A DNA stretch of 64,000 bases from Escherichia phage Phi1. Below the pieces are notes generated by a model. The model saw nothing but the letters and a program-made list of their open reading frames with translations. It ran no database searches and had not been told where the DNA came from. Location: sequence record EF437941; one strand, written 5' to 3'. Positions 1,877-58,425 of the stretch are shown piece after piece. Both the position numbers and the translations under genes were made by a program. The stretch's first letter is position 1, and every line of letters starts with the position of its first letter.

Positions 1877-3676
1877 ATGCTAATGTTTAATAACTCCGTT
1901 AAATGGTTTACCGGAATTGTAGAAAACAGGGAAGACCCATTAATGCTGGGGCGTGTTCAGGTTAGGATTCATGGTATACATCCCTCGCTATCCGCACACG
2001 GTGACATTCAAGGTCTTCCAACCGAAGATCTATTATGGATTACGCCAGTACAAGATATTACAAGCGCGGCGATCTCCGGTATAGGTCAAAGCCCTACTGG
2101 TATTGTTGAAGGTTCAATGGTATTTGGTTTGGCTTTAGATGAACGTTATTTAAACTGCGTTATTCTGGGTACTATTGCCGGACAATATACAGAGAAACCA
2201 CTCACTACAGAGGGTTTTTGCGACCCTTCTGGTGCATATCCTCGTTATATTGGTAATGATGTTAATATTCTTGCTCGTGGCGGTATTAACCCAGAAACCG
2301 GACAAACAACAAAACCTGATAGTGTCTATATTCGAGATGAAAACACTGGAGTTGCAGTAAATCCAGACGACGAGCCATTAGACCAAATTCCGGTTGATGA
2401 TAATCCTGATTTTACAATCGAAAAAATGCTGCGGGGCGATGAGGGATATCGCGAGAAATGGTATCTTGATTCAGAAGGATATCCGACAATAGGCATCGGG
2501 CATTTGATCATTTATAAGAAAACCAGTGATCTGGGTATTATCAATAATGAACTTTCTAAGCTGGTAGGGCGTGAAGTTACAAACGGAAGACTTACCGCCG
2601 AAGAAGTTAGTAAAGTATTTGCCGACGATATAGAAAAGACTCGTCGTGATATGCGCAAACATCCACGAATTGCACCTGTCTATAATAAATGTAATGCCTC
2701 ACGTCGTATGGCATTAGAAAATATGGCGTTTCAAATGGGTGTTGGTGGATTGGGTAAATTTAAGAATAGTCTTGCTGCGATGTTAGCGGAAGAATGGAAA
2801 CAAGCCTATGATGGATTACGTCAATCGGTATGGGCTAACCAAACTCCAGGACGCTCCAGCCGTGTTTCTAAAATTATTTTAACTGGTAACTTAGAATCAT
2901 ATGGCGTAATTGCTCCAAAGAAAGAGGAATCAATTTCTGATGATCCGCGAGCACGTTTGAGAAATGCCCGTATTGCTGCCTATAAGACGCAGAGAGCAGA
3001 AGAAGACCCAGAAGCACCGTTTACCCCACAAGACACACGAATCATGTTTAAAGAGCCTAAGAGTTCGTATTCCGCAAGGTATCCATATAACCATGTGTAC
3101 GAGTCAGAGAGCGGTCATATTATCGAGATTGATGATACTCCTTCTCATGAGCGATATCATCGTAAACATCCTTCGGGTACATTTGAAGAAACCAGACCGG
3201 ACGGAACGAGGGTAGAAAAGATTGAAGGTGATGATTATCTAATCGTTAAACAAGGCAGGAAAGTAAACGTTAAGGGTAATTTGCAAGTTGTTGTTGAAGG
3301 TGACGCGCAAGTTTATTATATGGGTAATGTGATGCAAACCGTTGATGGTAACGTCACTGAATTTATTCGTGGTAATGTTAATCAGACCGTTGAGGGTACA
3401 GCTAATATGCATGTTGTAGGTGATGTTACCGCTCAGCTTGACGCTAATTTAACGGCTAATGTCAAGGGTAATGCTGAATTAATGATCGAGGGTAACACTA
3501 CAGAGACAATTAAAGGTAACTATGATTTAACCGTTGAGGGTAATTTTAATATGACCGTCAATGGCACTAAATCAGATCAGGTTAATGGTGACTGGTCCCG
3601 TAATTGTGGTGCAAGCGTTAAAGATATTGCATCTGGTACAGTTAAAATTGATGGTAGCCGTATTGATCTTGGGTGA
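1877..3676 (+). CDS. 5: baseplate hub subunit and tail lysozyme gp5
   Basis: 599 aa; T4-lysozyme-like motif YLDSEGYPTIGIGH; C-terminal VxGxxxxx beta-helix repeats; synteny. Confidence 0.9.
   Translation: MLMFNNSVKWFTGIVENREDPLMLGRVQVRIHGIHPSLSAHGDIQGLPTEDLLWITPVQDITSAAISGIGQSPTGIVEGSMVFGLALDERYLNCVILGTIAGQYTEKPLTTEGFCDPSGAYPRYIGNDVNILARGGINPETGQTTKPDSVYIRDENTGVAVNPDDEPLDQIPVDDNPDFTIEKMLRGDEGYREKWYLDSEGYPTIGIGHLIIYKKTSDLGIINNELSKLVGREVTNGRLTAEEVSKVFADDIEKTRRDMRKHPRIAPVYNKCNASRRMALENMAFQMGVGGLGKFKNSLAAMLAEEWKQAYDGLRQSVWANQTPGRSSRVSKIILTGNLESYGVIAPKKEESISDDPRARLRNARIAAYKTQRAEEDPEAPFTPQDTRIMFKEPKSSYSARYPYNHVYESESGHIIEIDDTPSHERYHRKHPSGTFEETRPDGTRVEKIEGDDYLIVKQGRKVNVKGNLQVVVEGDAQVYYMGNVMQTVDGNVTEFIRGNVNQTVEGTANMHVVGDVTAQLDANLTANVKGNAELMIEGNTTETIKGNYDLTVEGNFNMTVNGTKSDQVNGDWSRNCGASVKDIASGTVKIDGSRIDLG
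3290..3640 (+). repeat. gp5 C-terminal beta-helix coding repeats
   Basis: Translated repeats of the form V-E/D-G-N-x-x-x-T/N (VEGDAQVYY, VDGNVTEF, VEGTANMH, VKGNAELM, IEGNTTET, VEGNFNMT, VNGTKSDQ). Confidence 0.8.
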
Positions 3677-10516: not shown

Positions 10517-10530
10517 GTGTATGATTTAAA

Positions 10531-10557
10531 AGCCAATTCGAGAGAGTTGGCTTTTTC
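10531..10557 (+). terminator. rho-independent terminator after gene 8
   Basis: Hairpin AGCCAA-loop-TTGGCT followed by TTTTT. Confidence 0.6.
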
Positions 10558-10567
10558 TATTTTGGGT

Positions 10568-10597
10568 GTTTACAATCTTGTCTGGTAAAGGTATAAT
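10568..10597 (+). promoter_or_regulatory. sigma70-type (early) promoter for the methyltransferase island
   Basis: GTTTACA, 17-18 bp spacer, TATAAT; about 35 nt upstream of the 85-aa ORF. Confidence 0.6.
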
Positions 10598-10629
10598 GCT
10601 CACATCTAAACAACGGAGGAGGATAAATT

Positions 10630-12086: not shown

Positions 12087-12094
12087 TATAAATA
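12087..12094 (+). promoter_or_regulatory. late promoter TATAAATA upstream of gene 9
   Basis: Exact TATAAATA 28 nt upstream of the gene 9 ATG. Confidence 0.6.
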
Positions 12095-12121
12095 ATACAT
12101 CATAACATGAGGAATTAAACA

Positions 12122-12976
12122 ATGGCACAAGTTCCAAAGAAAAGAATAGACACAGGTACTGTCGGCAATCCATCGACTGGCGATATCTTATATGATGGCG
12201 GTAATAAAATTAACGATAACTTTGATTCAATATATGACGCATTTGCTGATCAGCGGTTTAAAGACGTAGACCACGGCGTGGGAAGAATGGTTATTCATGC
12301 AACCGGATACTATCAGAAGCATCCACGTCAAAGCTACGCTGGTTCCGCTGTTGAGATTGGGAGTCTACACGATATCGATACAACTCAAGGCGCACTTATT
12401 GCTATTCTACCTAAAGCAAAGGTTGGCGAGGGTGTTGTATTCATAAATAGTAACGGTAGCCTTTCAACGACTACACCGCTCAATATTCGAACTCAAGCAG
12501 GTGATTCTATTAGCGGGTATTCCGGTGATGCTACAATAACACAACCATTTTCAAAAGTCACTGTTTGGTGTACTGCCGTTGAAGGTAGTCGCGTAACATG
12601 GCGATTGGGTATCGAAAGTATGTTTACCGATACAACAACGCCATTAGATAAAACAGTTAACGTAACTGGAGTAGCAACAAACGTTGCTATTGCCGCAAAA
12701 ACAGAATATGTTTCCATCAAATTATTAACTACCGCTAGCAATACATCCGGTTCAAAAATGCGTTCAAGTGAAACGCTACTGATGATTGATTCTAAAGCCG
12801 GAAAAGTTTATGCGACGGAATATGCAGTTTTGCAGAAGACAGAAGATGAACTATACACGGTTCGTTATTTCATCGGTTCCGGCGATAAAGTATATGCAGA
12901 GTATAAGGCTACTGGCGAAAATATTCGTTTAGCAGTTAAAGCCGTAGACACTATTAAAATCGGGGTTGCTACATGA
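12122..12976 (+). CDS. 9: baseplate wedge / long tail fibre connector gp9
   Basis: 284 aa; N-terminal KKRIDTGTVGNPSTGDILYDGGNKIN resembles T4 gp9; synteny. Confidence 0.85.
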   Translation: MAQVPKKRIDTGTVGNPSTGDILYDGGNKINDNFDSIYDAFADQRFKDVDHGVGRMVIHATGYYQKHPRQSYAGSAVEIGSLHDIDTTQGALIAILPKAKVGEGVVFINSNGSLSTTTPLNIRTQAGDSISGYSGDATITQPFSKVTVWCTAVEGSRVTWRLGIESMFTDTTTPLDKTVNVTGVATNVAIAAKTEYVSIKLLTTASNTSGSKMRSSETLLMIDSKAGKVYATEYAVLQKTEDELYTVRYFIGSGDKVYAEYKATGENIRLAVKAVDTIKIGVAT

Positions 12977-14775
12977 AACAATTAATTAATATCGGTAACG
13001 TTGTTGATGACGGTACAGGTGATTATCTAAGAAAAGGCGGTCAAAAGATTAATGACAACTTTTCTGAACTTTATACTAAGCTGGGGGATGGTGATATCCC
13101 TCATGCATCCGGCGCGTGGAAAACTCACACACAACCAGTATTAAAACCAAATTTTGGTGATGCATGGGCGATTAATACAACGAACAACGCTGTTTCTGTT
13201 GAATTACCTAAAGGAAGCGCGAGTGATTACAATAAAACAATTAAACTTCGTGATGTTTGGCGCTCATGGGCTGCACATAACGTAACATTGAAGCCAGCAC
13301 AAGGTGATACCATTAAGGGATCTCCAATCGACCGTGAGTTGTATAAAGATTTCATGGATGTTGAATTGGTTTATTGTGCGCCCGGACGTTGGGAATATGT
13401 CGAAAATAAACGAGTAGATACTATCACCACTTCCGATTTAAGCACAGTCGCTAAGGAAGTTTATATTGCAACCGAAGGACAAACAGACTTCCCTAATGTG
13501 TTTGGTTCCAATACTTACAATATTCGAAATGTTGAAGTGTATTATCGCGGTAACTTGCTTTATTATGGCAAGGATTTAACCGATGATTCTAACTATGGTT
13601 CAATCGGTGAAAACGGTGATATTGTTCCGCTGGACGGTAAAAGCATTAAATTACGCTTCCCTTGTTCGGCGGGTGATACCATTCAAATCATCACTTATAT
13701 GGACGGTATCGCATCCTTCCGGTCAAGCTATATTACTCATACAATCCGCGTTTATGAAACAGGAATGACCACTTTGGAATCCATCCCAGGTGAAGTTTGG
13801 GTTGGTGAACTAGCTAATAAGAAAGAATTTACTAATGCGGAATTAGGCGTAAGTAAGAGAGATCTTATTAATCCAAATTCATTTGAATTGCTGATCAACG
13901 GCACACAAATGATTAAAGCGGGTGATGCGGATTTACCTTCCTTTATTTGTGAAGGCGCTGACGGTGAAACAGAAGAAACTTGTGCACTTGCTGGCGGTCA
14001 ATGGGTGGAATCTGGGGAAGATTATTCATTGATGTTCGACGAAAACAGCGTGGTGACCGGTATTAAATTATCTAAAGCACTAGATAACCGAGACACTATC
14101 ACTATTCGCTGGTTTAATAATGATATCGGAACATTAATGGAATGGGACGGTGTAGGCGGTATTAAAGAAAAAGCAGATAAAATCTATCTTAATAACGAAG
14201 ATGAAGTTACGCTGACAAATCGAATTGAATATACCGATTTCCAGAATCCAAGCCAAGCAACTAAACGCCCAATGGAAGATTATACAGGTCGTGTGATGGA
14301 TATCTATTCCATATTCGATATTTTCTATCCTATAGGCACAATTTATGAAAATGCGCATAACCCAGCTAACCCAGCGACATATATGGGATTTGGTACATGG
14401 GTACGTTATGCAGAAAAAGAATTTTTAGTTGGTTGGTCTTCTGACGCAAGCGATCAAAACTTCGCACTAAACAACAACGATCTTGATACACATGGTCAAC
14501 CTACACACACCGCAGGGGGTAACGGTGGTGATGTTGCATACCAGATCAAGAAAAATATGATTCCTGAATTACAGAGCGACGATCGAGTTCTTGTAAAAGA
14601 TGATAACGGAAATATTATTATCGGTGGTTGTCAGGTAGACCCTGATGCAGTAGGTCCAGCGTTTACCAAATATCGCGAAGATAATATTAAAGTTAATCAG
14701 GGAAATACCGACCCGTCAATGATTGGTATTCTTCCCCCATACAGAACTGTCTATCGTTGGTTAAGGGTAGGTTAA
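12973..14775 (+). CDS. 10: baseplate wedge subunit and tail pin gp10
   Basis: 600 aa; N-terminus MKQLINIGNVVDDGTGDYLRKGG close to T4 gp10; synteny. Confidence 0.9.
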   Translation: MKQLINIGNVVDDGTGDYLRKGGQKINDNFSELYTKLGDGDIPHASGAWKTHTQPVLKPNFGDAWAINTTNNAVSVELPKGSASDYNKTIKLRDVWRSWAAHNVTLKPAQGDTIKGSPIDRELYKDFMDVELVYCAPGRWEYVENKRVDTITTSDLSTVAKEVYIATEGQTDFPNVFGSNTYNIRNVEVYYRGNLLYYGKDLTDDSNYGSIGENGDIVPLDGKSIKLRFPCSAGDTIQIITYMDGIASFRSSYITHTIRVYETGMTTLESIPGEVWVGELANKKEFTNAELGVSKRDLINPNSFELLINGTQMIKAGDADLPSFICEGADGETEETCALAGGQWVESGEDYSLMFDENSVVTGIKLSKALDNRDTITIRWFNNDIGTLMEWDGVGGIKEKADKIYLNNEDEVTLTNRIEYTDFQNPSQATKRPMEDYTGRVMDIYSIFDIFYPIGTIYENAHNPANPATYMGFGTWVRYAEKEFLVGWSSDASDQNFALNNNDLDTHGQPTHTAGGNGGDVAYQIKKNMIPELQSDDRVLVKDDNGNIIIGGCQVDPDAVGPAFTKYREDNIKVNQGNTDPSMIGILPPYRTVYRWLRVG

Positions 14776-14776
14776 T

Positions 14777-15421
14777 ATGATTTCGAAAACACGTTCAAAA
14801 GCTAGTGTATTTTCCAGCGATGCGGCGTTTATTTCATACGATCCAGGATCGAAAGATCCTGTTATCGGTGGTTCTCGTCCTATTGGTGGTGTTAATGTCG
14901 ATCAATCAAGAAAAGGTTCCTATGTAAGCAACGTTCAATCTGCAATTGATGACCTTTATTCATTGTCAATGATCCGAATTGGTGATGTGTTGGTTACAAC
15001 CAACTCAACTCCACCACAAGCCGCAGGACAGATTGAAACTCTGTCATTTTCTGGTTCTGTTAATAATCAGCATAATCCAGACGCAAACAAAGTATTAATT
15101 GATGTTTTGGGTTATCCATTTATTGTTGATGTTGGGTCTTCCGGCGTTTCTCTATGTGAGAAAGTAACGGAAAAATTTACCGAACTAATGAATAAAAACA
15201 TTATGTTCAAAGAAGTAAAAAGAAAAGGAAGTAGCAACGACCAATTAGAAATTCATTATATCGATTCTCTTGAACATCCACCAACCGATATTAGCAAGTA
15301 CGGAATTACAATCACAGGAAATGTTGATTCTCCTGCTCGTGTTGGTTATGGTTCATGGTCTCGAATGGGTACAGAAGAGAAATTTGGAACTACCCTATAT
15401 TATTTCAAACGTATTGCATAA
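14777..15421 (+). CDS. 11: baseplate wedge subunit gp11
   Basis: 214 aa (T4 gp11 about 219 aa); synteny. Confidence 0.8.
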   Translation: MISKTRSKASVFSSDAAFISYDPGSKDPVIGGSRPIGGVNVDQSRKGSYVSNVQSAIDDLYSLSMIRIGDVLVTTNSTPPQAAGQIETLSFSGSVNNQHNPDANKVLIDVLGYPFIVDVGSSGVSLCEKVTEKFTELMNKNIMFKEVKRKGSSNDQLEIHYIDSLEHPPTDISKYGITITGNVDSPARVGYGSWSRMGTEEKFGTTLYYFKRIA

Positions 15422-15432
15422 GGTGATGTATA

Positions 15433-16833
15433 ATGGCAAACAATACTATTAACCATGTAAAAGACGATGCTCAATACGTCAAGTTTAACCCTGTAAATGA
15501 TTGGCCTCAAAGCATTACCAACGTACAAGCGGCTTTAGCCGCTATTAATGGCTTTGCCGTAAATGGATTACCGGACGCTACGGAAGATACAGCCGGGATC
15601 GCTGCAATCGCAACTCAGGAAGAAGTAAACGACGGGACAGTAGACAATAAGATCGTGACTCCAAAAACACTGGCTGTTAAAATGTCACGTCCAGATGCTA
15701 CAAAAGAAGTAAAAGGCATTACCCGATTTGCCACGATGGAAGAATCGCTGCAAGAGAGCAACGAGAACATGGCAATCGGTCCAGACACACTAAACCATTA
15801 CTTCACCACTAAAAAGGCGTCAGAGAGCGTTCAGGGGACTATTAAGATATGTTCTCTTGAGGCGGCAAAGATTGGCAGTGATGACACAATGGCAGTAACA
15901 CCGAAAAAGATGCACACTGCCATTGCACAGATTGTACCGGGATTAATTCCAGATCAAAACACAGCAACCGAAAGCACACAGGGTTTAGTTCAGTTAGCAA
16001 CCAGTGCGCAAGTTTTACAAGGCCAGATTCGAGAAGGTTTTGCAATTAGTCCTTATGCATTTGCAAATGCTCGCGCCAATGAGAATCAGGCGGGTACTGT
16101 TAAGATCGCCAACCAGTCACAGATGAATGCTGGTTCAGATGATACTGTAGTTGTTTCTGCCAAGAAGTTTGCAAGCACTAAGGCAACAACGTCTCAATAC
16201 GGTATTGTTAAACTACGAGACACCGTAGGAAGTGAGGCTAACGCTGCACTATCAGCAAATGCTAAGGTTCTTCCTAGCACTGGCGGTACGGTAAGCGGAA
16301 ACGTCTATAAAGGTTCAAACTCAGACGGCAACCAGTTTGTTACTAAAAATGAATTAGCGAATCATGCAATGCCAATTGGTGGTATTATCCTTTCTGGATT
16401 CAATGCCGATCGAGGTGACTTTCTGATCTGTAATGGTCGTTCACTGAATAAAAATCAATATCCGCAATTATTTTCTGCGATTGGTTATACCTTTGGTGGT
16501 TCAGGTGACAATTTTAACATTCCTGATATGCGCGGTTTAGTTGCTCGTGGTTGCGATCATGGAAGAAACCTTGATCCAGGTCGTCGATTTGGTTCTTATC
16601 AAGAAGACGCAATGCAGAGAATCACTGGTAAATTCCCTGTAGCTGACCGCTGGCGCGGTTGGTATGGTGGCGCATTTACTGCACAGCGCGGTCAATGGAG
16701 CACGAACTATAAAAACGGTGGTGGTGATGATTGGGGTACTACTGTTAACTTTGACTCAGGAAGATCCGTAAGAACGGCTAACGAGACTCGCGTCAAGAGT
16801 CTGGCATTAAACTATATCATAAGGGTGCGCTAA
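15433..16833 (+). CDS. 12: short tail fibre protein gp12
   Basis: 466 aa; N-terminal region and C-terminal PDMRGLVARG / LNYIIRV resemble T4 gp12. Confidence 0.9.
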   Translation: MANNTINHVKDDAQYVKFNPVNDWPQSITNVQAALAAINGFAVNGLPDATEDTAGIAAIATQEEVNDGTVDNKIVTPKTLAVKMSRPDATKEVKGITRFATMEESLQESNENMAIGPDTLNHYFTTKKASESVQGTIKICSLEAAKIGSDDTMAVTPKKMHTAIAQIVPGLIPDQNTATESTQGLVQLATSAQVLQGQIREGFAISPYAFANARANENQAGTVKIANQSQMNAGSDDTVVVSAKKFASTKATTSQYGIVKLRDTVGSEANAALSANAKVLPSTGGTVSGNVYKGSNSDGNQFVTKNELANHAMPIGGIILSGFNADRGDFLICNGRSLNKNQYPQLFSAIGYTFGGSGDNFNIPDMRGLVARGCDHGRNLDPGRRFGSYQEDAMQRITGKFPVADRWRGWYGGAFTAQRGQWSTNYKNGGGDDWGTTVNFDSGRSVRTANETRVKSLALNYIIRVR

Positions 16834-18602
16834 TGATTGAACAATTAAACATCCACGAGATCCCACATGTTGACGGTGTACCAAGCGAAGGACAGCACCG
16901 TATTATTTGGATCAAGAATGGCGAATGTTTAAGCGCAGCAACGACACAGACTGGCAATGACGGGACGCTTAACCGCGCCCCGGTTGCAATTCAAGAAAAC
17001 GTTGCACGCGTAAACGAAAACGCAAAATCAACCGTCGCTAAAGTTAACGAGGTTGTAACGGCGGTTAACGATATTAAAACAACTTTAGGGGTAATTTCTG
17101 ACGGAAGTATCATTGATGTGGTTAACCAGACTGTCGCAAAAGTTGAATCCGTCGAAGAGAACTTAGGAGAAACAGCAAGAACTCTGCAAACAACGGTAGA
17201 CGCTGTATCAGAACTTAACATCAAGATTGGTGATCGCCCCGCTGCCGATCCGAGCACAAGAACAATCTATGATGACATTTCTTTCATCAAACAAGAAATG
17301 GGTTCTTATCCTAACTTTAATATCAATGGTTCCCCTGATGCTGGCAGTTCCGGTTCTGGCATCAAATACCGAGTTATTCAGAATACCGCAGCATTAAATG
17401 ACCACGGTCGCCGAATCGTTCAGCTTGAAAACGACTGGCAAGATTCTGACGTAGGCGAGTTAACAAGACAAGTTAACAAAATGCGCAGTGAGATCGGCGA
17501 CACGTCTCTTGCAACACAAGAAAATGTGTATGTTCGTCTCCGCACCAACGCAAGAAACATTGCTAACATATCAAACGAAGTTCTAGAAGTCAAGAAAGCA
17601 ATTTTGTTTGATTCAATCCCTGATATCGGGACTAAAGTCACTACTCTGGGAACTAATTATGAACTTCTAAACAATGATGTTAATGGTGTAGATTCTGGTA
17701 TTCGTCCTCGTCTTCTGGCTGTCGAGAATAAGATCGGAACGCCTCAATCGGCTGGAAGCATTGATTATCGATTAACCAACACAGAGCGAGAATTTTTAGA
17801 TCTTAAACAGGTTGTTGGTGTAAGCGGTGCTGACGGTTTGCGCGGTGAAGTTGTTCGACTTTCCAATGAGATTGGCACTGACAGCGATCGACATACTCTA
17901 GCCGGACGTCTTAAAGTTGTAGAAAACACTCAGGGTCGGTTAGAAGCAAGCGTACAGGACATGGAACAGATTGTAGGTGATCGCGAATCAGGTTTGACCG
18001 CTGGCGTTATTAAACTATCAAGTGATATCTATGGCGATGATGGTTCAGAAGATCCATTTACTCAGAAAGGCGTGATTAAAATCGTCAAAGAGCTACAAAC
18101 ATCTAACGGAAACAAAGTAGATGATGTACCTGATGACGGTTTCCATTATCTGCGTAAGCGCGGAGAATGGGTGCAAGTTGCATATGCTGCTGGAGCATTT
18201 AAAAATACCGCAGATATTACGGTTGAACTCGACGAACAGGATGTTTATAAACCGATTCCGCTTAACGACATGGCGGCAGAAGTTAATGCTCGTCAAATGG
18301 TGAAAAGTGAATCTGTTGTTACCGTTCAGGACAAAGGTTTATTCCGTTGTGTATTCCGTTGTGCTGTACAAGCTCAACATAATGCAACATTCATTGTTGC
18401 GATTTTCAAAAATGGACAGATGGTATATGAAGCGAAAAATGGTCATTACGGCACAGACGAATTGATCAGCTATTCTACCAGTGCTTTCCTAAATATTGAA
18501 AAGGGCGATCAAATTAACATCCGTATTAAGGGTGTATCTGTCGAAGCAGTAGCACAACCAGTACAAATTAAAGAGTTCCTCTTTGGGATTTCTCCGGTAT
18601 AA
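16833..18602 (+). CDS. wac: fibritin (whisker antigen control) with extra C-terminal C1q/TNF-like domain
   Basis: 589 aa; N-terminus VDGVPSEGQHRIIWIKNGE like T4 Wac; foldon-like GFHYLRKRGEWVQV followed by about 130 extra residues. Confidence 0.85.
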   Translation: MIEQLNIHEIPHVDGVPSEGQHRIIWIKNGECLSAATTQTGNDGTLNRAPVAIQENVARVNENAKSTVAKVNEVVTAVNDIKTTLGVISDGSIIDVVNQTVAKVESVEENLGETARTLQTTVDAVSELNIKIGDRPAADPSTRTIYDDISFIKQEMGSYPNFNINGSPDAGSSGSGIKYRVIQNTAALNDHGRRIVQLENDWQDSDVGELTRQVNKMRSEIGDTSLATQENVYVRLRTNARNIANISNEVLEVKKAILFDSIPDIGTKVTTLGTNYELLNNDVNGVDSGIRPRLLAVENKIGTPQSAGSIDYRLTNTEREFLDLKQVVGVSGADGLRGEVVRLSNEIGTDSDRHTLAGRLKVVENTQGRLEASVQDMEQIVGDRESGLTAGVIKLSSDIYGDDGSEDPFTQKGVIKIVKELQTSNGNKVDDVPDDGFHYLRKRGEWVQVAYAAGAFKNTADITVELDEQDVYKPIPLNDMAAEVNARQMVKSESVVTVQDKGLFRCVFRCAVQAQHNATFIVAIFKNGQMVYEAKNGHYGTDELISYSTSAFLNIEKGDQINIRIKGVSVEAVAQPVQIKEFLFGISPV

Positions 18603-18608
18603 GAAATT

Positions 18609-18632
18609 AAAGGGGCGTTAAGCCCCTTTTTC
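18609..18632 (+). terminator. rho-independent terminator after wac
   Basis: Hairpin AGGGGC-GTTAA-GCCCCT followed by TTTTT. Confidence 0.65.
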
Positions 18633-18647
18633 GTTATAGGTGATATT

Positions 18648-19580
18648 ATGTCAGGATATGTAACCAACAACCCAAGAGAATTAAAAGACGCTATTCTGCG
18701 TCGTTTAGGCGCACCAGTAATTAACGTAGAAGTAACAGAAGACCAGATTTACGATTGTATTCAGAGAGCATTAGAACTCTATGGGGAATATCATTTCGAT
18801 GGTGTGAATAAAGGATATAAAGTATTTCGTGTTAGTGCAGAGCAAGCGCAACATGGGGTATTTGATTTGAGCGATTCTGGAGTATTCGCAGTAACTAAAA
18901 TAATTCGAACAAACGTAGGTAGCGCGGCTACGATGGATGGCACTGCCGTTTATCCGTGGTTTACTGACTTTCTGTTGGGTTTAGCGGGTGTAAATGGAGG
19001 TTTAGGATCTGGCTGTAGTAAATTTTATGGTCCAAATGCAATGGGCGGTGATCTAGGATATTTCGAACAGCTTATGAGCTATCGAGCCACTATGCAAAAT
19101 ATGCTTAATCCTCTTCCCGATTACTGGTATAACAGCGCAAACGGACAACTTAAGATTACAGGAAACTTCCGAGAAGGTGATCTCATTGTTGTTGAATTAT
19201 ATGTTAAAAGCTATGTAGACGTTCCTGATATGATCGGCGCGGTTGCTGGTTATGCTCATGCTGGAGGATGTTCTACCGCTGGCGGGATTAGCGCCGTTTA
19301 TGATAATCCAACTGCTGGTTTAAGCGGGATTGTTGCTGGCATGGGACCAATCAGTGAGAACAAACAGGGCGCATATAATAACCGTTGGGTGAAAGATATG
19401 GCTACCGCCTTCACTAAGGAGGTTTGGGGGTCCATCATGGCTAAACATCAAGGTCTGCAATTACCCGGTGGTGTCACTGTTGATGGTATCCGAATCATTG
19501 AAGAAGCACGCGCCGACATTGAGAAATTGCGACAAGAACTAGAATTATTAGATCCTCCGTTCGGCATCCTCATGATTTGA
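18648..19580 (+). CDS. 13: neck protein gp13
   Basis: 310 aa (T4 gp13 about 309 aa); synteny. Confidence 0.8.
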
Positions 19581-19589
19581 TTAAATGTG

Positions 19590-19632
19590 TTGACTAATAT
19601 GTTCTCGTTAGTGTATGATCTGACGAGAACAT
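19590..19632 (+). promoter_or_regulatory. sigma70-like promoter inside a 10-bp inverted repeat, upstream of the GIY-YIG gene
   Basis: TTGACT, 18 bp, TATGAT; inverted repeat ATGTTCTCGT ... ACGAGAACAT brackets the -10 region. Confidence 0.5.
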
Positions 19633-19646
19633 AAAAGGAGAATCAT

Positions 19647-20231
19647 ATGGCATATTATTATCTATATCAAATAACAAATAATTTAAATGGGATGGTCTAT
19701 GTTGGTATGAGAACGTCCAAAAAACCAATAGAAAAGGATTCTTATTGGGGGAGCGGAAAACGAATTAAAAGAGCAATAAAAAAGTATGGAATAGAGAACT
19801 TCACAAAAACTATTCTTTCCACACACAACACGTTAGAAGAACTAGCTTTAGCAGAAAAAAAGATAGTGACTAAGGAATTTGTAGAAAGAGAAGATACATA
19901 TAATATTGCTCTGGGTGGAGTGAATAGAGGTTCTTTGTGGGATGACATGGACGAAGAAACCAAAAATGAAGCAAGAAGAAAAATATCTGAAAAAGCATCC
20001 AGTCGAAAAAGAGAATCTCACTCAGAAGAGACTAAAAATAAAATGAGTCAATCGGCAAAAAATAGAAATAGAGATTGGGAAAATTTTAAAGGCGCAAGAA
20101 AAATTATGGCAGAAGGTGTTCTATACTTAACCACTCAAGAATGTTGTAGAAAGTATGGGATATCAGCCGCTTCTATGAGGAAACGAGTAAAGTCAACCGC
20201 AGAAAAATGGAAGGAGTTTTATTATGTTTGA
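19647..20231 (+). CDS. GIY-YIG homing endonuclease (Seg-like)
   Basis: N-terminal [19 protein letters not shown] (GIY-YIG motif), conserved R and YGIENF block, NUMOD-like [10 protein letters not shown]; inserted between genes 13 and 14. Confidence 0.8.
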
Positions 20232-20964
20232 CTCTACATTATTTGCCAGATTGGAGTCACAGAAGGATTATGAGAACACTAGACAAACAGAAATTCTCAA
20301 TCCTTATGTGAATTTCAATTCACATACAAATACACAAACTCTAGCCGATATTATGGTTGCCGAGTCTATACAAATGCGCGGCGTCGAGATGTACTACATA
20401 CCGAGAGAATTTGTTAAACCTGATATGATATTTGGGGAGGATGTACAAAGCAAATTCACTAAGGCGTGGAAGTTTGCAGCGTACATAAATTCTTTCGATG
20501 GGTATGAGGGCGCTGGCAATTTCTTTCAATCTTTCGGTTATACCGCTAATGATGAATTAACCATAACCATAAATCCAAATTTATTCAAACATCAAGTAGA
20601 CAACAAAGAGCCTAAATCCGGCGATTTGTTTTACATTCCTATGAGCAACGATTTATTCGAAATCTCATACGTCGAGCCATATCAGCCGTTTTTTCAGGCT
20701 GGCAAAAATGCCATGCGTAAAATTATTGCAGAGAAATTCGTGTATAGCGGTGAGGAATTGCGACCAGAATTACAACGCAATGAGGGAATTAATGTTGATG
20801 AGTTTGCGGATCTGGACCTTGCACCAATCACTAATCTGGACGGGTTAACAGATATCAACTTAGATCAGTACAAAGAAGATAAGCAATTCAGAAGCGAAGG
20901 ACAAGATTTTATTGATCCGTTTGATCCTATTAATGGCAAGGGTTCACCTTTCGCCGATTTTTGA
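20224..20964 (+). CDS. 14: neck protein gp14
   Basis: 246 aa; synteny; start overlaps the end of the endonuclease gene. Confidence 0.8.
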
Positions 20965-20990
20965 TAAATACTCATAAACAAGGGGGTCAA

Positions 20991-21824
20991 ATGTTCGGTT
21001 GGCACTATAATTCGTCAATTAGACGGTATATTGTATTGCTGGGTAATTTATTCTCCGGCGTACAAATTAAAAGGGTGCGTAGCGACGGTGAGCGTTTTAT
21101 TAAAGTTCCTATCACCTACGCAAAGAAAGAAAAATTCATGATGAGTCTGGACAAATATAACAATATCTCAAGTGAGGAAGATGTAGCAAAGGTAGAAACT
21201 ATTTTACCGCGTATGTGTCTTTCTTTGATTGATATGACATACGCCCAGAACTTTAAAACAAATATTGCAAATAAGACAGTACCAAAATATACGGCTGATG
21301 GAATCAGGAGTGTGACACAATATAATCCTGTACCATATAAGTTTACCTTCGAGTTAGGGATTTATACGCGTAACGAAGATGATATGTTTCAGATAATTGA
21401 ACAGATTCTTCCTTACTTCCAGCCTCATTTTAACTGTAAGATTAAAGAACTACACGGTAATGATGTATGGATTGATCGAGATATTCAGGTCACAATTAGT
21501 TCTATTACTCCAGATGAACAGGTAGGCGAAGATAAGTTTTCTCGTCGTCGTCTTGAGTGGACCATTATGTTCGAATTTATCGGCTTTATATATCCTCCAG
21601 CTACCGACGTTAAGGGGGAAATTAGAACGATTTATCTTGATTTTCATGCCAATTCTCGTGAATTGAATCCTAGCGGTAATTTTGAATCAGTGGATCACGA
21701 GGTCGTTAAACGTGACGTCGAGCAAGAAGATTGGGACGGAACTATCAAAGAATCATATTCTAGTGATATTCCAATACCAGTTGCACCGACTCCACCGGGT
21801 CCACGTATTGTAAGAGAATTTTAA
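20991..21824 (+). CDS. 15: tail sheath stabiliser / tail completion protein gp15
   Basis: Start moved from the TTG in the ORF track to ATG at 20991 (RBS AAGGGGG); N-terminus MFGWHYNSSIRRY resembles T4 gp15. Confidence 0.85.
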   Translation: MFGWHYNSSIRRYIVLLGNLFSGVQIKRVRSDGERFIKVPITYAKKEKFMMSLDKYNNISSEEDVAKVETILPRMCLSLIDMTYAQNFKTNIANKTVPKYTADGIRSVTQYNPVPYKFTFELGIYTRNEDDMFQIIEQILPYFQPHFNCKIKELHGNDVWIDRDIQVTISSITPDEQVGEDKFSRRRLEWTIMFEFIGFIYPPATDVKGEIRTIYLDFHANSRELNPSGNFESVDHEVVKRDVEQEDWDGTIKESYSSDIPIPVAPTPPGPRIVREF

Positions 21825-21837
21825 GAGGTAATTTATT

Positions 21838-24158
<2,321 letters not shown>

Positions 24159-51913: not shown

Positions 51914-52126
51914 TTATAATGCACCATCGAGCAATTGCTCTAAGGTGTATCCTGAATAGTCTTTTTCAATCAGGGTATATTTTCCTACTCGTTTAATACA
52001 ACCGCGCATTTCAACGTATTCTGCGTAGTTGATGGTACGAGTTGTTCCATCTTCCAGTAATGCAGTACCGATTTCGTTAATGCGGTCATAAGTTACGTCG
52101 GTAATGATGATTTCGATGTTAGCCAT
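51914..52126 (-). CDS. hypothetical early protein (70 aa)
   Basis: ATG with RBS AAGGAG; begins MANIE like the 83-aa ORF at 54252..54503. Confidence 0.5.
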   Translation of the reverse strand: MANIEIIITDVTYDRINEIGTALLEDGTTRTINYAEYVEMRGCIKRVGKYTLIEKDYSGYTLEQLLDGAL

Positions 52127-52201
52127 TTGATACTCCTTAGTAGTTCGTTTCGGTATGGGTGTATTATGATATACACCCTCTGTTATGTCAACAACTTTTT
52201 A
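52127..52201 (-). promoter_or_regulatory. early promoter cassette 1
   Basis: On the - strand: A-run, TTGACA, 17 bp, CATAAT, conserved leader CCGAAACGA, RBS. Confidence 0.6.
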
Positions 52202-52378
52202 GAACATTTTTGAAATTAATTTTGCTTTGATTTCGCAGAGAACACCTAAAGATTTCTCGTCACCCGCTTTTGCTGCTTCTGATTGCATTTTTGAAATGGC
52301 TTCAATGTCAGTGCAATTATAAGCCGCTTGAACTTTAGCGATTGCGATGATTGCCGATTCGATGGTTAAGTGTTTCAT
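52202..52378 (-). CDS. hypothetical early protein (58 aa)
   Basis: ATG with RBS AGGAGA; below the ORF-track cut-off. Confidence 0.45.
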
Positions 52379-52447
52379 GTTTGATTCTCCTTTCGTTTCG
52401 GTATGTGTGTATTATGGGGGATCACCGATCCCCCTGTCAACAACTTT
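52379..52447 (-). promoter_or_regulatory. early promoter cassette 2 (GATC palindrome in spacer)
   Basis: TTGACA, spacer GGGGGATCGGTGATCCCCC, CATAAT, conserved leader. Confidence 0.6.
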
Positions 52448-52966
52448 TTAGTTATTTTTTAATTGCTCATCTTGCAATAGGGAAATCACATGCTGGCGAT
52501 GTTCTTCCGATTGAGGGACACCGAAAAAGTTTGTTTTGTAGAAATACTCTAATCGGTCTTCTCGTGTGCTCTCTTCCATCATGATCGCGGGTAGTCCGAG
52601 ATTTCGGAAACGTCGCTTTTCTGCTGGCGTAAAATCACTGTAATACAGCATAGAATCATCGTTACCAGCAATGCTAAACTCATCATTCATGAAGGAGAAT
52701 ATTGCGTTTAAACGCTGTTTACCGTCCACGATTTCGATCTCATAGCGAGAGCCATCATCAATCTTAGCCATTGCGATAGCACCAACCGGAAAATCATTAA
52801 TCAGGTTTTCGATAAACATACGTTTGTTTTCGGTGTCCCATACCAAAGGACGCTGATAATCTGGGTTCATGTTGATATAGCCATCTTCTAACCACGCCTC
52901 ATAAACAGAGATGACAAAGTTTTTAGTATTGGTATAGTAACGGCGTTTAGGCGTTAAACGGTTCAT
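52448..52966 (-). CDS. DUF262 / ParB-like nuclease-NTPase domain protein
   Basis: Start set to ATG at 52966 (RBS AGGAGA); PDYQRPLVW ... FIENLINDFPVGAI ... IVDGKQRLNAI matches the DUF262 signature (pFQR..W / DGQQR). Confidence 0.65.
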   Translation of the reverse strand: MNRLTPKRRYYTNTKNFVISVYEAWLEDGYINMNPDYQRPLVWDTENKRMFIENLINDFPVGAIAMAKIDDGSRYEIEIVDGKQRLNAIFSFMNDEFSIAGNDDSMLYYSDFTPAEKRRFRNLGLPAIMMEESTREDRLEYFYKTNFFGVPQSEEHRQHVISLLQDEQLKNN

Positions 52967-52967
52967 G

Positions 52968-53300
52968 TTATAGTCTCCTGAATGGATCATCACGTAAATC
53001 AATATCTTTTAAGAACTCATCCCATGAATGGCGGATATTGTTCTTAATTCTCCAGATAAGCGCAGGGATTGAACGCTCTCCCATCTGGAAGTAAGGATCA
53101 TATGATCCGTATGCCCAATATGCTACTACAATTCCACAATCAGCGCAATAATATTCTATTTCACTTGCTGGCGACCAAAGTCCATCAATATGATCGGTGA
53201 TCCTGCTTTCGATGTTATGGCTATGGCAATCAGGGCAACGGATGCAATGACCTTGTTTATCGTAATTTGACGTTAGCGAATACTTAAACAATCTCATCAT
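52968..53300 (-). CDS. Zn-ribbon protein (110 aa)
   Basis: CIRCPDCHSH ... YCADCG Cys/His clusters; translationally coupled to neighbours. Confidence 0.5.
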   Translation of the reverse strand: MMRLFKYSLTSNYDKQGHCIRCPDCHSHNIESRITDHIDGLWSPASEIEYYCADCGIVVAYWAYGSYDPYFQMGERSIPALIWRIKNNIRHSWDEFLKDIDLRDDPFRRL

Positions 53301-54013
53301 AGATCCTTATTGGCTTCAAATACTGCCTTTGCGAATCCTCGCGGGGTAAGTGACCTGATAGTCTTTGTTCTGGTTCCTTTCCCGCCTAGCTTAGAATGCT
53401 GTTTACTGTACCCTTTATTAATATGCAACGGTTTCTTTTCTGGCATTATAAAGCCTTGTCCGGTCCATAAGCAAGTCTTTTTCGGGTACATATCACGGGC
53501 GGCAATATACTCAGGAAACGTAGGATGTTTATCATCTTCCGGCAAATAACCGCCATATTCCCACGGATGGAACATGTAATCAGGCTTACGCCACATACTA
53601 GAGATAACGCTTACAGGATTCTCTATCATGTAGGGAACTCCTAGCCATTCACCCAAATAAGCGGTTATTTTAGCTGCCCGTACATCATGAACTTGAATCA
53701 ATGGTCCTTGTTCTCGTTTCTTTCGTTCAAAGTGTGCAGCGCCACTAACAGCTAAATTGGTGCACGGTGGGAATGCAAATATAATATCCGGTTTCCCCCA
53801 TTCAAGGTCCATTGCTCTTTCCAGCCAGTTCAAATCAATCCAGGTGTTTACATAAGTAATGTTTGGATGTTCAAATCTGGTATTATACTTTTTGTATGTA
53901 CCGTGGTCGGCGTCATCCGCATTAAAGCAGACTACCTTATGACCTGCTTTAGCCCATTCTAGCCCCATTATCCCCGATCCGTCAAAGTTGCAGAATATTA
54001 ATTTTTGTTTCAT
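53297..54013 (-). CDS. C5-cytosine methyltransferase-like protein (truncated, 238 aa)
   Basis: Motif I FCNFDGSGIMGLEWAKAG (FxGxGG), motif IV FAFPPCTNLAVSG (PC), motif VI MIENPVS (ENV-like), C-terminal SLTPRGFAKAV; no obvious target-recognition domain. Confidence 0.55.
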   Translation of the reverse strand: MKQKLIFCNFDGSGIMGLEWAKAGHKVVCFNADDADHGTYKKYNTRFEHPNITYVNTWIDLNWLERAMDLEWGKPDIIFAFPPCTNLAVSGAAHFERKKREQGPLIQVHDVRAAKITAYLGEWLGVPYMIENPVSVISSMWRKPDYMFHPWEYGGYLPEDDKHPTFPEYIAARDMYPKKTCLWTGQGFIMPEKKPLHINKGYSKQHSKLGGKGTRTKTIRSLTPRGFAKAVFEANKDL

Positions 54014-54255
54014 ATACGACCCTTTAACCCAGCACAGATTTTAGTCGGTTCTTTACCGTGCCACATTAAGTAAAGTCCGTTAATGCGACCTTGTTTTGTG
54101 TGTGATTCTTTTCTGATCTTCTTATAGTGTCGTGCTTCCTCAACTGATTGTTTAGAATACCAATCATAAAGGAAGAGGCACAAAGGCCAACCATTAGCGG
54201 CCTTAATGCAGTTATTAAGAAATTCCTTATTGCGTTTAATTAATTTTCTTTTCAC
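54010..54255 (-). CDS. hypothetical protein (81 aa)
   Basis: GTG start overlapping the upstream stop; coding status less certain. Confidence 0.4.
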   Translation of the reverse strand: MKRKLIKRNKEFLNNCIKAANGWPLCLFLYDWYSKQSVEEARHYKKIRKESHTKQGRINGLYLMWHGKEPTKICAGLKGRI

Positions 54256-54503
54256 GCTGCCCCCATTGGTTTGATAGTAACAGAATCTAAAAGACCTTTG
54301 TTAGCCAGTTCGCGGCAAGTTTTCAGATCCGTAACTTCCCAGCCAGCCGCAATCAGGTTATCGATGAGGCTGTTAGCTACTTCCTCGCTCATGAAAGAGC
54401 ACTGTTTGCCGATGGTGTAGCGCACACGATGTAATTTCAGTTTACGGAAGCCTTTAACGTTCAGGTCTTTAGCGATTTTCTTTGCGGTTTCGATGTTAGC
54501 CAT
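54252..54503 (-). CDS. hypothetical protein (83 aa), first gene of the operon
   Basis: ATG directly downstream of early promoter cassette 3. Confidence 0.5.
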   Translation of the reverse strand: MANIETAKKIAKDLNVKGFRKLKLHRVRYTIGKQCSFMSEEVANSLIDNLIAAGWEVTDLKTCRELANKGLLDSVTIKPMGAA

Positions 54504-54587
54504 TGTTTGATTCTCCTAAGTGGTATCTCGTTTCGATGGTTGTATTGTAGGGGGAGTTATCCTCCCCTGTCAACACTTTTTATAAAA
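54504..54587 (-). promoter_or_regulatory. early promoter cassette 3
   Basis: TTGACA, palindromic spacer GGGGAGGATAACTCCCCC, conserved leader and RBS. Confidence 0.55.
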
Positions 54588-54755
54588 TTATTTGTTAATT
54601 TCTGGTGCGTTGCTAGGATAGTAACCTTCTTTAACTCCGAGGTATTTCGCAACCATCCCTACAATCTTCTGTGCTACTACAATGTCAAATTTCAGATAAT
54701 CTTCGCCGTGGGTTTCAATGATATATGCTTCACATGCTGCTTTAGTCTCGAACAT
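54588..54755 (-). CDS. hypothetical protein (55 aa), copy 1 of a duplicated gene
   Basis: MFETKAACEAYIIETHGEDYLKFDIVVAQKIVGMVAKYLGVKEGYYPSNAPEINK; paralogue at 57863..58030. Confidence 0.55.
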   Translation of the reverse strand: MFETKAACEAYIIETHGEDYLKFDIVVAQKIVGMVAKYLGVKEGYYPSNAPEINK

Positions 54756-54831
54756 TTTGATTCTCCTATTTCGTTTCGGTATGTGTGTAGTATAGGGGAT
54801 CTCCCGACCCCCGTCAACAACTTTTTTAAAA
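54756..54831 (-). promoter_or_regulatory. early promoter cassette 4
   Basis: TTGACG, spacer GGGGTCGGGAGATCCCC, conserved leader. Confidence 0.55.
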
Positions 54832-55113
54832 TTATTCGTGATTAGTTTCGATGTTGTGCATTTTGCACCAGTTCAACCAATCACCCATATCTTGATAGTT
54901 GATGCTTTTATCTGCTGCCATCGTTTTTGTCTTGATACCCATATGTGCGTTATGAGTAAGCATTTTTACAGTGAACTCAATTTTATCGCCTTTAGCTTTA
55001 ACATCAACCAGTTTGGTCCACTGGCTACCAGCGCCGCGAATGTTCATACCAACGATGTTTCCGATGTATGCTTCTTTGTTTTTCAGGATTTCGGTTGCTT
55101 TGATGAATTTCAT
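54832..55113 (-). CDS. hypothetical early protein (93 aa)
   Basis: ATG with RBS GGAGAA. Confidence 0.5.
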   Translation of the reverse strand: MKFIKATEILKNKEAYIGNIVGMNIRGAGSQWTKLVDVKAKGDKIEFTVKMLTHNAHMGIKTKTMAADKSINYQDMGDWLNWCKMHNIETNHE

Positions 55114-55183
55114 TTTTGATTCTCCAGTTCGTTTCGGTATGGGTGTATTATGCTATGTTCTTACTTTGGTGTCAACAACTTTT
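55114..55183 (-). promoter_or_regulatory. early promoter cassette 5
   Basis: TTGACA, 17-19 bp, CATAAT, conserved leader. Confidence 0.55.
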
Positions 55184-55453
55184 TTAGATATTTTCAGAAA
55201 TAAATTTTAAAACTTGACGTAAATGTTTCTCATCTTTGATAGTCGCCGGAAGTTCTTCTTTTACTTCCTGTGCAAGATAGATATTTCCGTTCCAAGTGAA
55301 AGATCCGTCTTTGTTTACGCGATAGCTGAACATCCACTCGCAATCATTTTCGATTTCATATACACACAGAAGGGTGTAATCGTTAAAGCTATTGATTTCA
55401 AGGTCGAAGCCGTGACGTTTTGCAAAGTTGGTAGTGGTTTTAGTCAGTGCCAT
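55184..55453 (-). CDS. hypothetical early protein (89 aa)
   Basis: ATG with conserved leader and RBS. Confidence 0.5.
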   Translation of the reverse strand: MALTKTTTNFAKRHGFDLEINSFNDYTLLCVYEIENDCEWMFSYRVNKDGSFTWNGNIYLAQEVKEELPATIKDEKHLRQVLKFISENI

Positions 55454-55545
55454 TGTTTGATTCTCCTAAGTGGTATCTCGTTTCGATGGGTGTATTATGC
55501 TATAGGTCGGATCTGGTGTCAATTCTTTTTTTAAAATTTTATGCA
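55454..55545 (-). promoter_or_regulatory. early promoter cassette 6
   Basis: TTGACA variant with conserved leader. Confidence 0.5.
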
Positions 55546-55572
55546 ATAAAAAAGCCGACGCTAAGGTCGGCT
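55546..55572 (-). terminator. rho-independent terminator (- strand)
   Basis: On the - strand: AGCCGACC-TTAGC-GTCGGCT followed by TTTTTTATT. Confidence 0.65.
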
Positions 55573-55579
55573 AATAAAA

Positions 55580-55888
55580 TCATTTAGACAAATAATCATT
55601 CAGTGCAATCCGGTCGGCGTATGCTGGTGTTACGTCAATCGCAATCACTTTAACGCGTGCTTTCTTGCGACCTGGGTTTTCACGTAACCAGTGCTCATGA
55701 CCGTGAACATTTTTATACTGCGATGCTTCTTCGAAGGTACGGATCGGACCTGGGTAATCAGCGTAAAGGATCTCTAGATCTTCGGTGATGTAAAAATATA
55801 CATCATAATTACTGTTCTCTAGTTTAAGCAGAGACTTTCGGAACATTGGGAGATTTTCGCGGGTAAATTCAAAGATATTATCTTTCAT
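55580..55888 (-). CDS. HxHW-motif small protein (102 aa), family member
   Basis: HGHEHW ... VIAIDVTPAYAD. Confidence 0.55.
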   Translation of the reverse strand: MKDNIFEFTRENLPMFRKSLLKLENSNYDVYFYITEDLEILYADYPGPIRTFEEASQYKNVHGHEHWLRENPGRKKARVKVIAIDVTPAYADRIALNDYLSK

Positions 55889-55938
55889 AGTATTATCCTC
55901 AATAGTTGGATGAGAAGGGGCGTTAACGCCCCCATATA

Positions 55939-56226
55939 TTAAAACAGTCCTTCATGTACACCGTAGTAGAGTTCGTCGCTGATAATTTCATTAATGCGAC
56001 GGTGTGCATATTCCTGATTTGCGAAGTTGTCAGCAAGTTCTACTTTAGTTTCGCCGTCATGAGTCCATTTAGTGATAACTTTACCATCTGCAAATTTGAA
56101 GTTGAACTCTTTAGCTACTGCATCGCGTACCAGACGTGCAAACTTATTGTTGCGGATTGCATTGTCGGTTTCGTGTGAAGCGTGAGCAAATTTGTTAACT
56201 TTCAGAGTGATAGTGATGTATGCCAT
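55939..56226 (-). CDS. hypothetical early protein (95 aa)
   Basis: Shares the AKEFN.K segment with the ORF at 59265..59576. Confidence 0.5.
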   Translation of the reverse strand: MAYITITLKVNKFAHASHETDNAIRNNKFARLVRDAVAKEFNFKFADGKVITKWTHDGETKVELADNFANQEYAHRRINEIISDELYYGVHEGLF

Positions 56227-56586: not shown

Positions 56587-56590
56587 AATA

Positions 56591-57113: not shown

Positions 57114-57115
57114 AA

Positions 57116-57606: not shown

Positions 57607-57618
57607 AATATATTCCTC

Positions 57619-58409: not shown

Positions 58410-58425
58410 AATATTTTCCTCAAAA

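Follow-up and report, generated by a model that had tools for sequence, protein, structure and literature searches.

A segC-like homing endonuclease cassette of phage phi1 with a PeSL-type promoter and a putative late intercistronic RNA hairpin

We analyzed a 64,000-nt stretch of the Escherichia phage Phi1 genome (EF437941; hereafter the window), focusing on the junction of neck genes 13 and 14. Taken as a whole, this locus is probably a segC-like homing cassette of phi1 (Krischvirus, RB49 group) that combines an endonuclease gene with a PeSL-type promoter and with an RNA hairpin that would lie between cistrons in late transcripts. The gene and the type of its control element are already known: the gene is annotated (phi1 segC) and was named in print in 2010, as one of seven phi1-specific genes absent from RB49 (Arbiol et al. 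2010, PMC2839356), and its control element is of the published PeSL class. The features discussed below are collected in Table 1.

Table 1. Features at the gene 13/14 junction of phi1 (positions are those of the window).
Feature	Position	Strand	Basis
Gene 13, neck protein, 310 aa	18648-19580	+	ORF list; annotated homologues in ECD7/RB49
HEG cassette proper, in place of 34 nt of RB49-type spacer	19583-20223	+	junction comparison with RB49 and pEJ01
-35 hexamer TTGACT, within block GTGTTGAC	19590-19595	+	promoter scan
5' stem arm TATGTTCTCGTTAG, in promoter spacer	19598-19611	+	RNA fold, repeat finder, E26 covariation
-10 hexamer TATGAT, inside 8-nt loop (19612-19619)	19614-19619	+	promoter scan, RNA fold
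3' stem arm CTGACGAGAACATA, spanning expected start site	19620-19633	+	RNA fold
Endonuclease Shine-Dalgarno block AGGAGAATCA	19636-19645	+	10-mer count
segC-like GIY-YIG homing endonuclease gene, 194 aa	19647-20231	+	ORF list, domain searches, structure model
Gene 14 Shine-Dalgarno AAGGAG, within endonuclease CDS, 7 nt 5' of gp14 ATG	20211-20216	+	sequence
Gene 14, neck protein, 246 aa	20224-20964	+	Pfam T4_neck-protein 1.2e-101
Divergent tract, gp14 nt 7-450 (444 nt)	20230-20673	+	comparison with RB49

The GIY-YIG open reading frame is intact, with gene 13 upstream and gene 14 downstream, and its 194-aa product is a 100% match to the phi1 SegC homing endonuclease ABR24660.1. The protein scores 29.5 bits against Pfam SegE_GIY-YIG (gathering cut-off 25) and matches PHROG 314 ('homing endonuclease') at 1e-45. 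The Pfam scan also returned a sub-threshold match to the I-TevI DNA-binding domain, and the C-terminal 80 residues align with the structure of that domain, 1i3j (E 0.0015). An AF2 model, computed with 37 relatives as input, has pLDDT > 93 for residues 1-90 and strands at residues 3-11, 17-24, and 52-60; its best PDB matches are to the I-TevI catalytic domain (1mk0/1ln0, probability 1.00, TM (target) 0.61-0.63). The GIY-YIG motifs read YLY (5-7) ... YVG (18-20). Residues Y5, Y7, Y18, G20, R22, E70, and N86 are invariant in an alignment of five Seg proteins; among the 37 relatives no change is seen at Y7, G20, E70, or N86, and Y18 is nearly invariant. Both the motifs and the three-stranded sheet of the GIY-YIG superfamily are present, the former in the sequence and the latter in the model. 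The predicted domain plan consists of (i) a catalytic domain at about residues 1-95, (ii) a linker with one NUMOD3-like helix, and (iii) a C-terminal helix-turn-helix of the I-TevI type. The open reading frame and the catalytic residues are intact in every member of the 194-aa cluster. Judged by sequence and model, the protein appears to be an intact Seg-type enzyme of I-TevI-like architecture, and the Pfam, PHROG, and AF2/PDB evidence bears out the preliminary description, which had called the gene a free-standing Seg-type GIY-YIG endonuclease between genes 13 and 14. T4 SegC is 35% identical to it over 97% of the protein; at this level the label 'SegC' is to be read from the sequence as an annotation transfer, not as orthology.

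The boundaries of the insertion follow from comparison with phages that have an empty junction. The 3' end of gene 13 is identical to that of RB49 as far as the insertion, and the first difference comes after TGA-TT. From there, 641 nt in phi1 replace 34 of the 36 nt of the native 13/14 spacer. The empty spacer of the RB49 type, TT-TATTGGGGGAGTATTCCCCCATTTGGAGTAACAT, has no promoter and holds a small G/C hairpin and the gp14 Shine-Dalgarno (SD) sequence. Both the GGGGGAGTATTCCCCC hairpin and this SD are lost in phi1, where a new gp14 SD comes from the cassette's own 3' coding end. The end of the endonuclease gene overlaps the start of gene 14, as described earlier; the overlap between the endonuclease stop and the gp14 ATG is 8 nt, with the sequence ATGTTTGA. 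The cassette of phage E26 has the same 3' end, ...EKWKEFYYV*, again overlapping gp14. Embedding of the gp14 signals in the endonuclease gene would favor retention of that gene. The + strand contains no TATAAATA from 12087 to 24151, so that genes 14-17, having none of their own in this interval, depend on transcriptional read-through. Separately, we observed a similar hairpin at the wac/13 junction (18609-18629).

The 66-nt spacer 5' of the endonuclease gene contains a predicted promoter, TTGACT-18-TATGAT, that agrees with the sigma-70 consensus at 10 of 12 positions, and a perfect 10-bp repeat, ATGTTCTCGT/ACGAGAACAT (19599-19608 / 19623-19632). The promoter had been described as bracketed by this repeat. 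The promoter and the repeat are indeed there, but folding and the repeat finder extend the stem to 14 bp, with one T.G (G.U) pair and an 8-nt loop, and it is the -10 alone that lies in the loop, with the -35 outside. The stem core has a folding energy of about -20.6 kcal/mol. Neither the stem nor the promoter is significant alone: in the whole window there are 9 perfect 10-bp hairpin repeats (2.35 expected) and 2 hairpins of the 14-bp/1-mismatch class (0.275 expected), and promoter-like matches between 16 and 24 kb are at the level of chance (21 against 22.2 expected). Together, stem and promoter appear credible through their intergenic context, the sequence blocks shared with PeSLs, and their conservation in E26. 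An Rfam scan of 19000-20500 with E values up to 1 matched no family.

This layout has a direct consequence for which RNAs can fold. From the usual distance of 6-8 nt past the -10, the start site is expected at about 19626-19627. Because this position is inside the 3' arm, promoter-proximal RNA cannot form the hairpin, and RNA starting at 19626 is predicted to be unstructured (-4.4 kcal/mol, z +0.86). In the reading that we prefer, host RNA polymerase would use the PeSL-type promoter early, starting within the 3' arm, and the early transcripts, with an unstructured leader and a PeSL-type SD, would be translated, so that the endonuclease would be made early. The 14-bp hairpin would form only in late transcripts reading through from gene 13, at 18 nt past the gp13 stop, roughly where the native spacer hairpin stood. 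Folding of the read-through RNA had been suggested in the preliminary description; the part of that suggestion that stands is the restriction of the hairpin to read-through RNA, whereas occlusion of the ribosome-binding site (RBS) is not conserved, as detailed below. From its position and from the replacement of the native hairpin, we infer that the stem may have an intercistronic role in late RNA, acting as a barrier, a stabilizer, or a mild attenuator and not as a mask of the RBS. It would take over from the native 13/14 hairpin while letting through the transcription on which genes 14-17, lacking their own late promoter, depend. An intrinsic terminator was considered and rejected: the sequence past the stem is AAAAGGAG and lacks a U-tract, a terminator scan was empty, and genes 14-17 lack a TATAAATA of their own.

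We then compared the leader across phages that carry the cassette. It is the same in phi1, ECD7, and kvi, and in phiS the stretch from stem to SD is longer by one A. The sole divergent copy is that of E26, with the promoter TTTACA-17-TATAAT, the -10 again in the loop, and a stem ATCCGTTCTCG...CGAGAACGGAT of -21 kcal/mol. The covariation alignment comprised three sequences and 13 pairs and represents two lineages, phi1 and E26. Eight of the 13 pairs never vary, three changed on both sides (A-U to C-G, U-A to C-G, and A-U to U-A), one changed to U.G, and one is a U.G kept in both lineages. Paired cells amount to 97%, against 31-51% in slid controls, and the observed covariation score was reached by 25 of 500 shuffles. 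These values suggest modest covariation support for the stem in two lineages, and the repeat to which the preliminary description had drawn attention is kept, with compensatory changes, in the only divergent relative of the cassette. The G.U pairs on the sense strand favor a structure of the RNA, or of the sense single strand, over a symmetric duplex site, as far as sequence can indicate. Relatives of the protein at 49-99% identity were absent among 5.8 billion proteins. A search of IMG/VR with the pattern GTTCTCG...CGAGAAC...GGAG was discarded as too loose, its 120 matches being due to chance and all lacking a promoter in the loop; when TATRAT was required there, the ECD7 copy alone was returned, and no further stem variants turned up in IMG/VR. 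Among the leaders of 52 Seg homologues surveyed in IMG/VR, 14 had z below -2, and RBS-adjacent hairpins were common, often with a late promoter inside.

One alternative assigns the hairpin a translational function: in late read-through RNA, the hairpin and its flanking pairings would block ribosomes, and the endonuclease would come from early transcripts only. We regard this as unlikely. The geometry of a promoter within a hairpin is as in I-TevI, I-TevII, I-TevIII, segB, and mobE (Edgell et al. 2010, PMC2988022), and many of the Seg homologues in IMG/VR have an RBS-adjacent hairpin with a promoter. The minimum free energy (MFE) structure of the RNA 19570-19670 (-27.5 kcal/mol, z -3.5) also includes weak outer helices reaching the SD and the spacer between SD and AUG, and the gene's own transcript is unstructured. 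By constrained partition functions, opening the SD-AUG region of phi1 costs 6.55 kcal/mol in read-through RNA and 4.15 kcal/mol in the own transcript (+2.4). In E26, however, the difference has the opposite sign (4.37 in read-through RNA and 6.86 in the own transcript, -2.5). The conserved stem, moreover, stops short of AGGAG (19636-19640), which starts 2 nt past the stem and is excluded from it; apart from a few flanking pairs, the centroid structure of 19570-19670 is reduced to the core stem; and the outer pairings are not conserved. The nearest analogue, seg43(25) of Aeromonas phage 25, is itself left open in the literature (PMC2988022). The occlusion of the RBS proposed in the preliminary description is thus not supported, with AGGAG outside the stem and small differences in opening cost that are opposed in the two phages. 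We are similarly doubtful of the fuller version, a temporal gate mirroring I-TevI in which the late hairpin both silences the gene and replaces the native 13/14 intercistronic hairpin. If such a gate did exist, insertion into an essential late operon would be selectively neutral, and the keeping of a hairpin in two cassettes that are 45% identical would mark it as a requirement for invading late operons.

The control element can be compared with a class described from the same phages. [quoted passage not shown] The authors' list contains 52 PeSLs for phi1. In the window, a canonical PeSL array is found on the - strand at about 52-60 kb, with the arrangement AAAAAGTTGTTGACA-GGGGATC...GATCCCC-TATAAT...AGGAGAATCAAAATG. 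The segC leader has the -35 block GTGTTGAC in common with this array. The window contains 9 copies of the 10-mer AGGAGAATCA, with 0.18 expected, and 7 of the 9 are in the array. Like a PeSL, the segC element has an intergenic sigma-70-like predicted promoter, the SD AGGAGAATCA with an ATG next to it, and a stem spanning the spacer, the -10, and +1. The poly-G/poly-C stem with a terminator or attenuator function is missing: the stem is GTTCTCG-based, and there is no U-tract. By these sequence features, the segC promoter and stem-loop would fit the PeSL class, in the subclass 'overlapping the -10'.

The distribution of the gene among relatives points to mobility. The DNA is 98-98.6% identical to the krischviruses ECD7, kvi, and phiS, where the ORF is annotated as segC or homing endonuclease and the protein is 99-99.5% identical. 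These three and phi1 are the carriers of segC; RB49, pEJ01, and more than 30 other krischviruses among those listed have the empty 36-nt spacer, and their 13-14 span without insert is 1710 nt. Comparison of the 13/14 junction among relatives had been named earlier as a way to define the insertion, and it bore fruit, with most relatives lacking the gene and signatures of mobility in the flanks. Other Seg genes occupy the same or the adjacent junction: (i) E26 has a relative of about 298 aa at 13/14 with the same leader design, the two cassettes being about 45% identical; (ii) phages of the Makalu_002/KFS-EC type have a 271-aa Seg at 13/14, with the native hairpin left in place; (iii) JSE-type phages have a Seg of 42% identity at the 14/15 junction; and (iv) Aeromonas phage PX29 has a Seg gene between 13 and 14 without such a PeSL. 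Among the four carriers, the cassette shows 1-4 differences in 651 nt, and a gp13-gp14 query of 2317 nt that includes the cassette shows 98.0-98.6% identity (1.4-2.0% divergence) in the same phages, which suggests that the cassette is slightly less diverged than its flanks.

The 5' part of gene 14 carries a second trace. The stretch gp14 nt 7-450 has 110 differences (24%) between phi1 and RB49, the affected codons being 75 synonymous and 16 non-synonymous, and in the remaining 291 nt of gp14 there are 2 differences. For gp14 nt 1-122, the three other segC-carrying phages are the only ones with an allele 100% identical to that of phi1, and all other krischviruses are at 75-81%. In pEJ01, which is Seg-less, gp14 is of the RB49 type at first and becomes phi1-type between nt 135 and 141; in Makalu_002 the switch to the phi1 type falls between nt 321 and 334. 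The phi1-type tracts of both phages have a common right end at nt 450. We interpreted the gp14 tract as DNA that was probably imported with the endonuclease gene by co-conversion and that probably contains or abuts the target. From the nested, one-sided mosaic in gp14, which is as expected from break-repair co-conversion, we infer a putative cleavage site in or next to gp14. In relatives that lack a Seg gene, the endonuclease would cut the spacer or the 5' portion of gene 14, and repair would then carry over both the endonuclease gene and the adjoining gp14 tract, as for T4 SegF/SegG. Alternatively, the tract could have arisen by ordinary recombination in which the endonuclease had no part. 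Presence or absence at one site and the comparative signature of co-converted flanking markers, both of which characterize a Seg-type homing gene, are found together here, and segC mobility is supported at the level of sequence comparison.

The PeSL class itself suggests another route of movement, in which the promoter-stem-loop and the ORF were shuffled by PeSL recombination, a mechanism suggested earlier for ORFans, and the endonuclease was irrelevant or inactive. The upstream element is of the PeSL class, mini-circles in phi1 and RB49 form from PeSL-flanked ORFs, and a G5/C5 stem-loop of the PeSL type is present at the native site. Nevertheless, we consider this route improbable: the 3' end of the cassette has no second PeSL and is fused to the gp14 start, and the native spacer is without a promoter. 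The long one-sided gp14 tract and the nested tracts of pEJ01 and Makalu_002 are a signature of break-repair co-conversion. In addition, none of the 194-aa members has lost the ORF or a catalytic residue, and PX29 is an example of a phage that has a Seg gene at 13/14 but no such PeSL. We therefore retain homing by the endonuclease as the preferred reading of the mobility.

Very improbable, finally, is a DNA operator, also raised in the preliminary description, in which a repressor dimer, or the endonuclease acting on its own gene, would recognize the palindrome across the -10 and the start. The repeat is ideally placed for repression, covering the spacer, the -10, and +1, and I-TevI provides both a precedent for autorepression and a counterpart of the DNA-binding domain in this protein, but (i) binding of the I-TevI type is monomeric and to homing-site-like sequence, (ii) the best match of 19581-19646 to the RB49 empty site, a stand-in for the target, is 13/20 and is equaled by 255 of 300 shuffles, which places it at chance level, (iii) U.G pairs, one of them kept across lineages, are A.C mismatches on the other strand and make for imperfect duplex half-sites, and (iv) the arms change by compensation and are not conserved, which is more in keeping with a structure than with a recognition sequence.

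Having a promoter inside a hairpin is a textbook trait of T-even homing endonuclease genes. The general design of a hairpin with a promoter is not new, given that RBS-adjacent hairpins are common among Seg-homologue leaders, and the significance of the present analysis is little beyond bookkeeping. The locus illustrates how homing endonucleases compete for one site in nature, with three different Seg genes at 13/14 and a fourth at 14/15, another at 13/14 in an Aeromonas phage, and nested co-conversion tracts with one common end. The gp14 genes of RB49 or pEJ01 are concrete substrates for mapping the target of a Seg enzyme.

Among known systems, phi1 segC resembles T4 SegC and the Seg family in its domain plan and length, its intergenic position, its co-orientation with the neighboring genes, and its sporadic occurrence among close relatives. 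T4 segC, at 5.1/5.3, has been described as a cassette with no promoter, whereas the phi1 gene is located at 13/14 and has its own predicted promoter. For SegF and SegG of T4, marker exclusion and co-conversion from a distant cleavage site are documented (cited in PMC2988022). The likeness to phi1 is in the one-sided donor tract that extends from the endonuclease gene into an essential neighbor gene; the difference is that in phi1 the cleavage site and the exclusion are deduced from comparative sequence only. With I-TevI, the phi1 protein shares the catalytic fold and a related C-terminal DNA-binding domain, and the two genes share a promoter inside a hairpin such that only read-through RNA folds, which in phi1 holds for the expected start site. 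In contrast to I-TevI, which is intron-encoded (td) and has a late promoter, the phi1 gene is free-standing with an early sigma-70-type promoter; its hairpin excludes the RBS, which in control of the I-TevI type is sequestered, and no zinc finger is evident in the phi1 protein. The hairpin of seg43(25) in Aeromonas phage 25 is similar by description, being very stable, just 5' of the RBS, and not sequestering it (PMC2988022), but that gene belongs to a different phage group and is inserted inside a split gene 43.

The closest comparison for the control element is with the PeSLs of phi1 and RB49 (PMC2839356; Comeau et al. 2014, PMC4122927). The segC stem is 14 bp long, A/T-richer, and GTTCTCG-based, whereas PeSLs are typically GGGG...CCCC. 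PeSL211/210 were shown to be terminators; without a U-rich tail, the segC stem is unlikely to be one. The segC element precedes a homing endonuclease gene in the virion module, where PeSLs are rare, whereas PeSLs precede ORFan genes in the hyperplastic region. What the segC element has in common with them, in the same phage, is an early promoter directly 3' of the upstream stop codon, G.T pairs on the sense strand, and an SD and start codon that follow immediately.

Genes of the Seg type (free-standing GIY-YIG homing endonucleases) have repeatedly landed at the junctions of neck genes, and occupy such junctions in both JSE-type krischviruses and an Angelvirus, Aeromonas phage PX29 (see table). 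No hairpin was found 5' of the Seg-type gene of the JSE-type phages.

No late promoter was found ahead of gene 13, and late transcription apparently reads through the intercistronic hairpins of the wac/gene 13 operon. Between genes 13 and 18, the sole near-consensus late promoter candidate is GATAAATA, which departs from the late promoter TATAAATA at a single position. An antisense promoter-like match over the opening codons of the segC-like endonuclease gene, which lies between genes 13 and 14, is oriented toward that gene's hairpin and gene 13, and is probably due to chance.

Promoter-early stem-loops (PeSLs), a published class of phi1/RB49 elements, occur elsewhere in the window. At least 10 canonical PeSLs, each 5' of small ORFs, are arrayed on the minus strand of a hyperplastic region of the type described for phi1/RB49. 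A PeSL-like unit also lies within the structural gene block.

Features discussed in the text, with coordinates in the window or in the named phage sequence
Feature	Sequence	Position	Strand	Details
Seg-type gene	JSE (L006)	2501-3256		Between genes 14 and 15
Seg-type gene	Aeromonas phage PX29 (L135)	2021-2704		Between genes 13 and 14
Annotated "hypothetical protein"	E26 (L003)	2456-3391
Canonical PeSL layout	Window	52000-60000	-	AAAAAGTTGTTGACA + GGGGATC…GATCCCC stem + TATAAT/CATAAT + …AGGAGAATCAAAATG
PeSL-like unit	Window	10528-10600	+	Terminator-like hairpin AAAAGCCAATTC…GAGTTGGCTTTT, then TTTACA-17-TATAAT, then SD/ATG
Strong terminator-like hairpin	Window	18609-18629		AAAGGGGCGTTAAGCCCCTTT + TTCGTT; wac/gene 13 spacer
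Late promoter candidate	Window	20963-20970		14/15 spacer
Antisense promoter-like match	Window	19642-19670	-	TTGATA-17-TATGAT, 10/12
gp17, 1824 nt	Window	22332-24155
gp17, 2817 nt	ECD7 (L001)	5184-
gp17, 2817 nt	Makalu_002 (L004)	5447-
gp17, 2817 nt	kvi (L136)	5186-

The large terminase gp17 varies in annotated length, with RB49 sharing the shorter form of the window. The longer form of ECD7, kvi and Makalu_002 reflects an insertion of ~330 aa, absent from the window, which may represent an intein or the fusion of a mobile element.

In E26, which has a Seg relative at the 13/14 junction, the annotated start of the "hypothetical protein" falls within the promoter/hairpin; the true start is likely the ATG at 2495 (MNHYVYKITN…), with TAGGAG just 5' of it. 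The divergent flank of the E26 cassette comprises approximately the last 400 nt of gene 13 and not gene 14, and lies on the opposite side from that of phi1, where gene 14 is the divergent flank.
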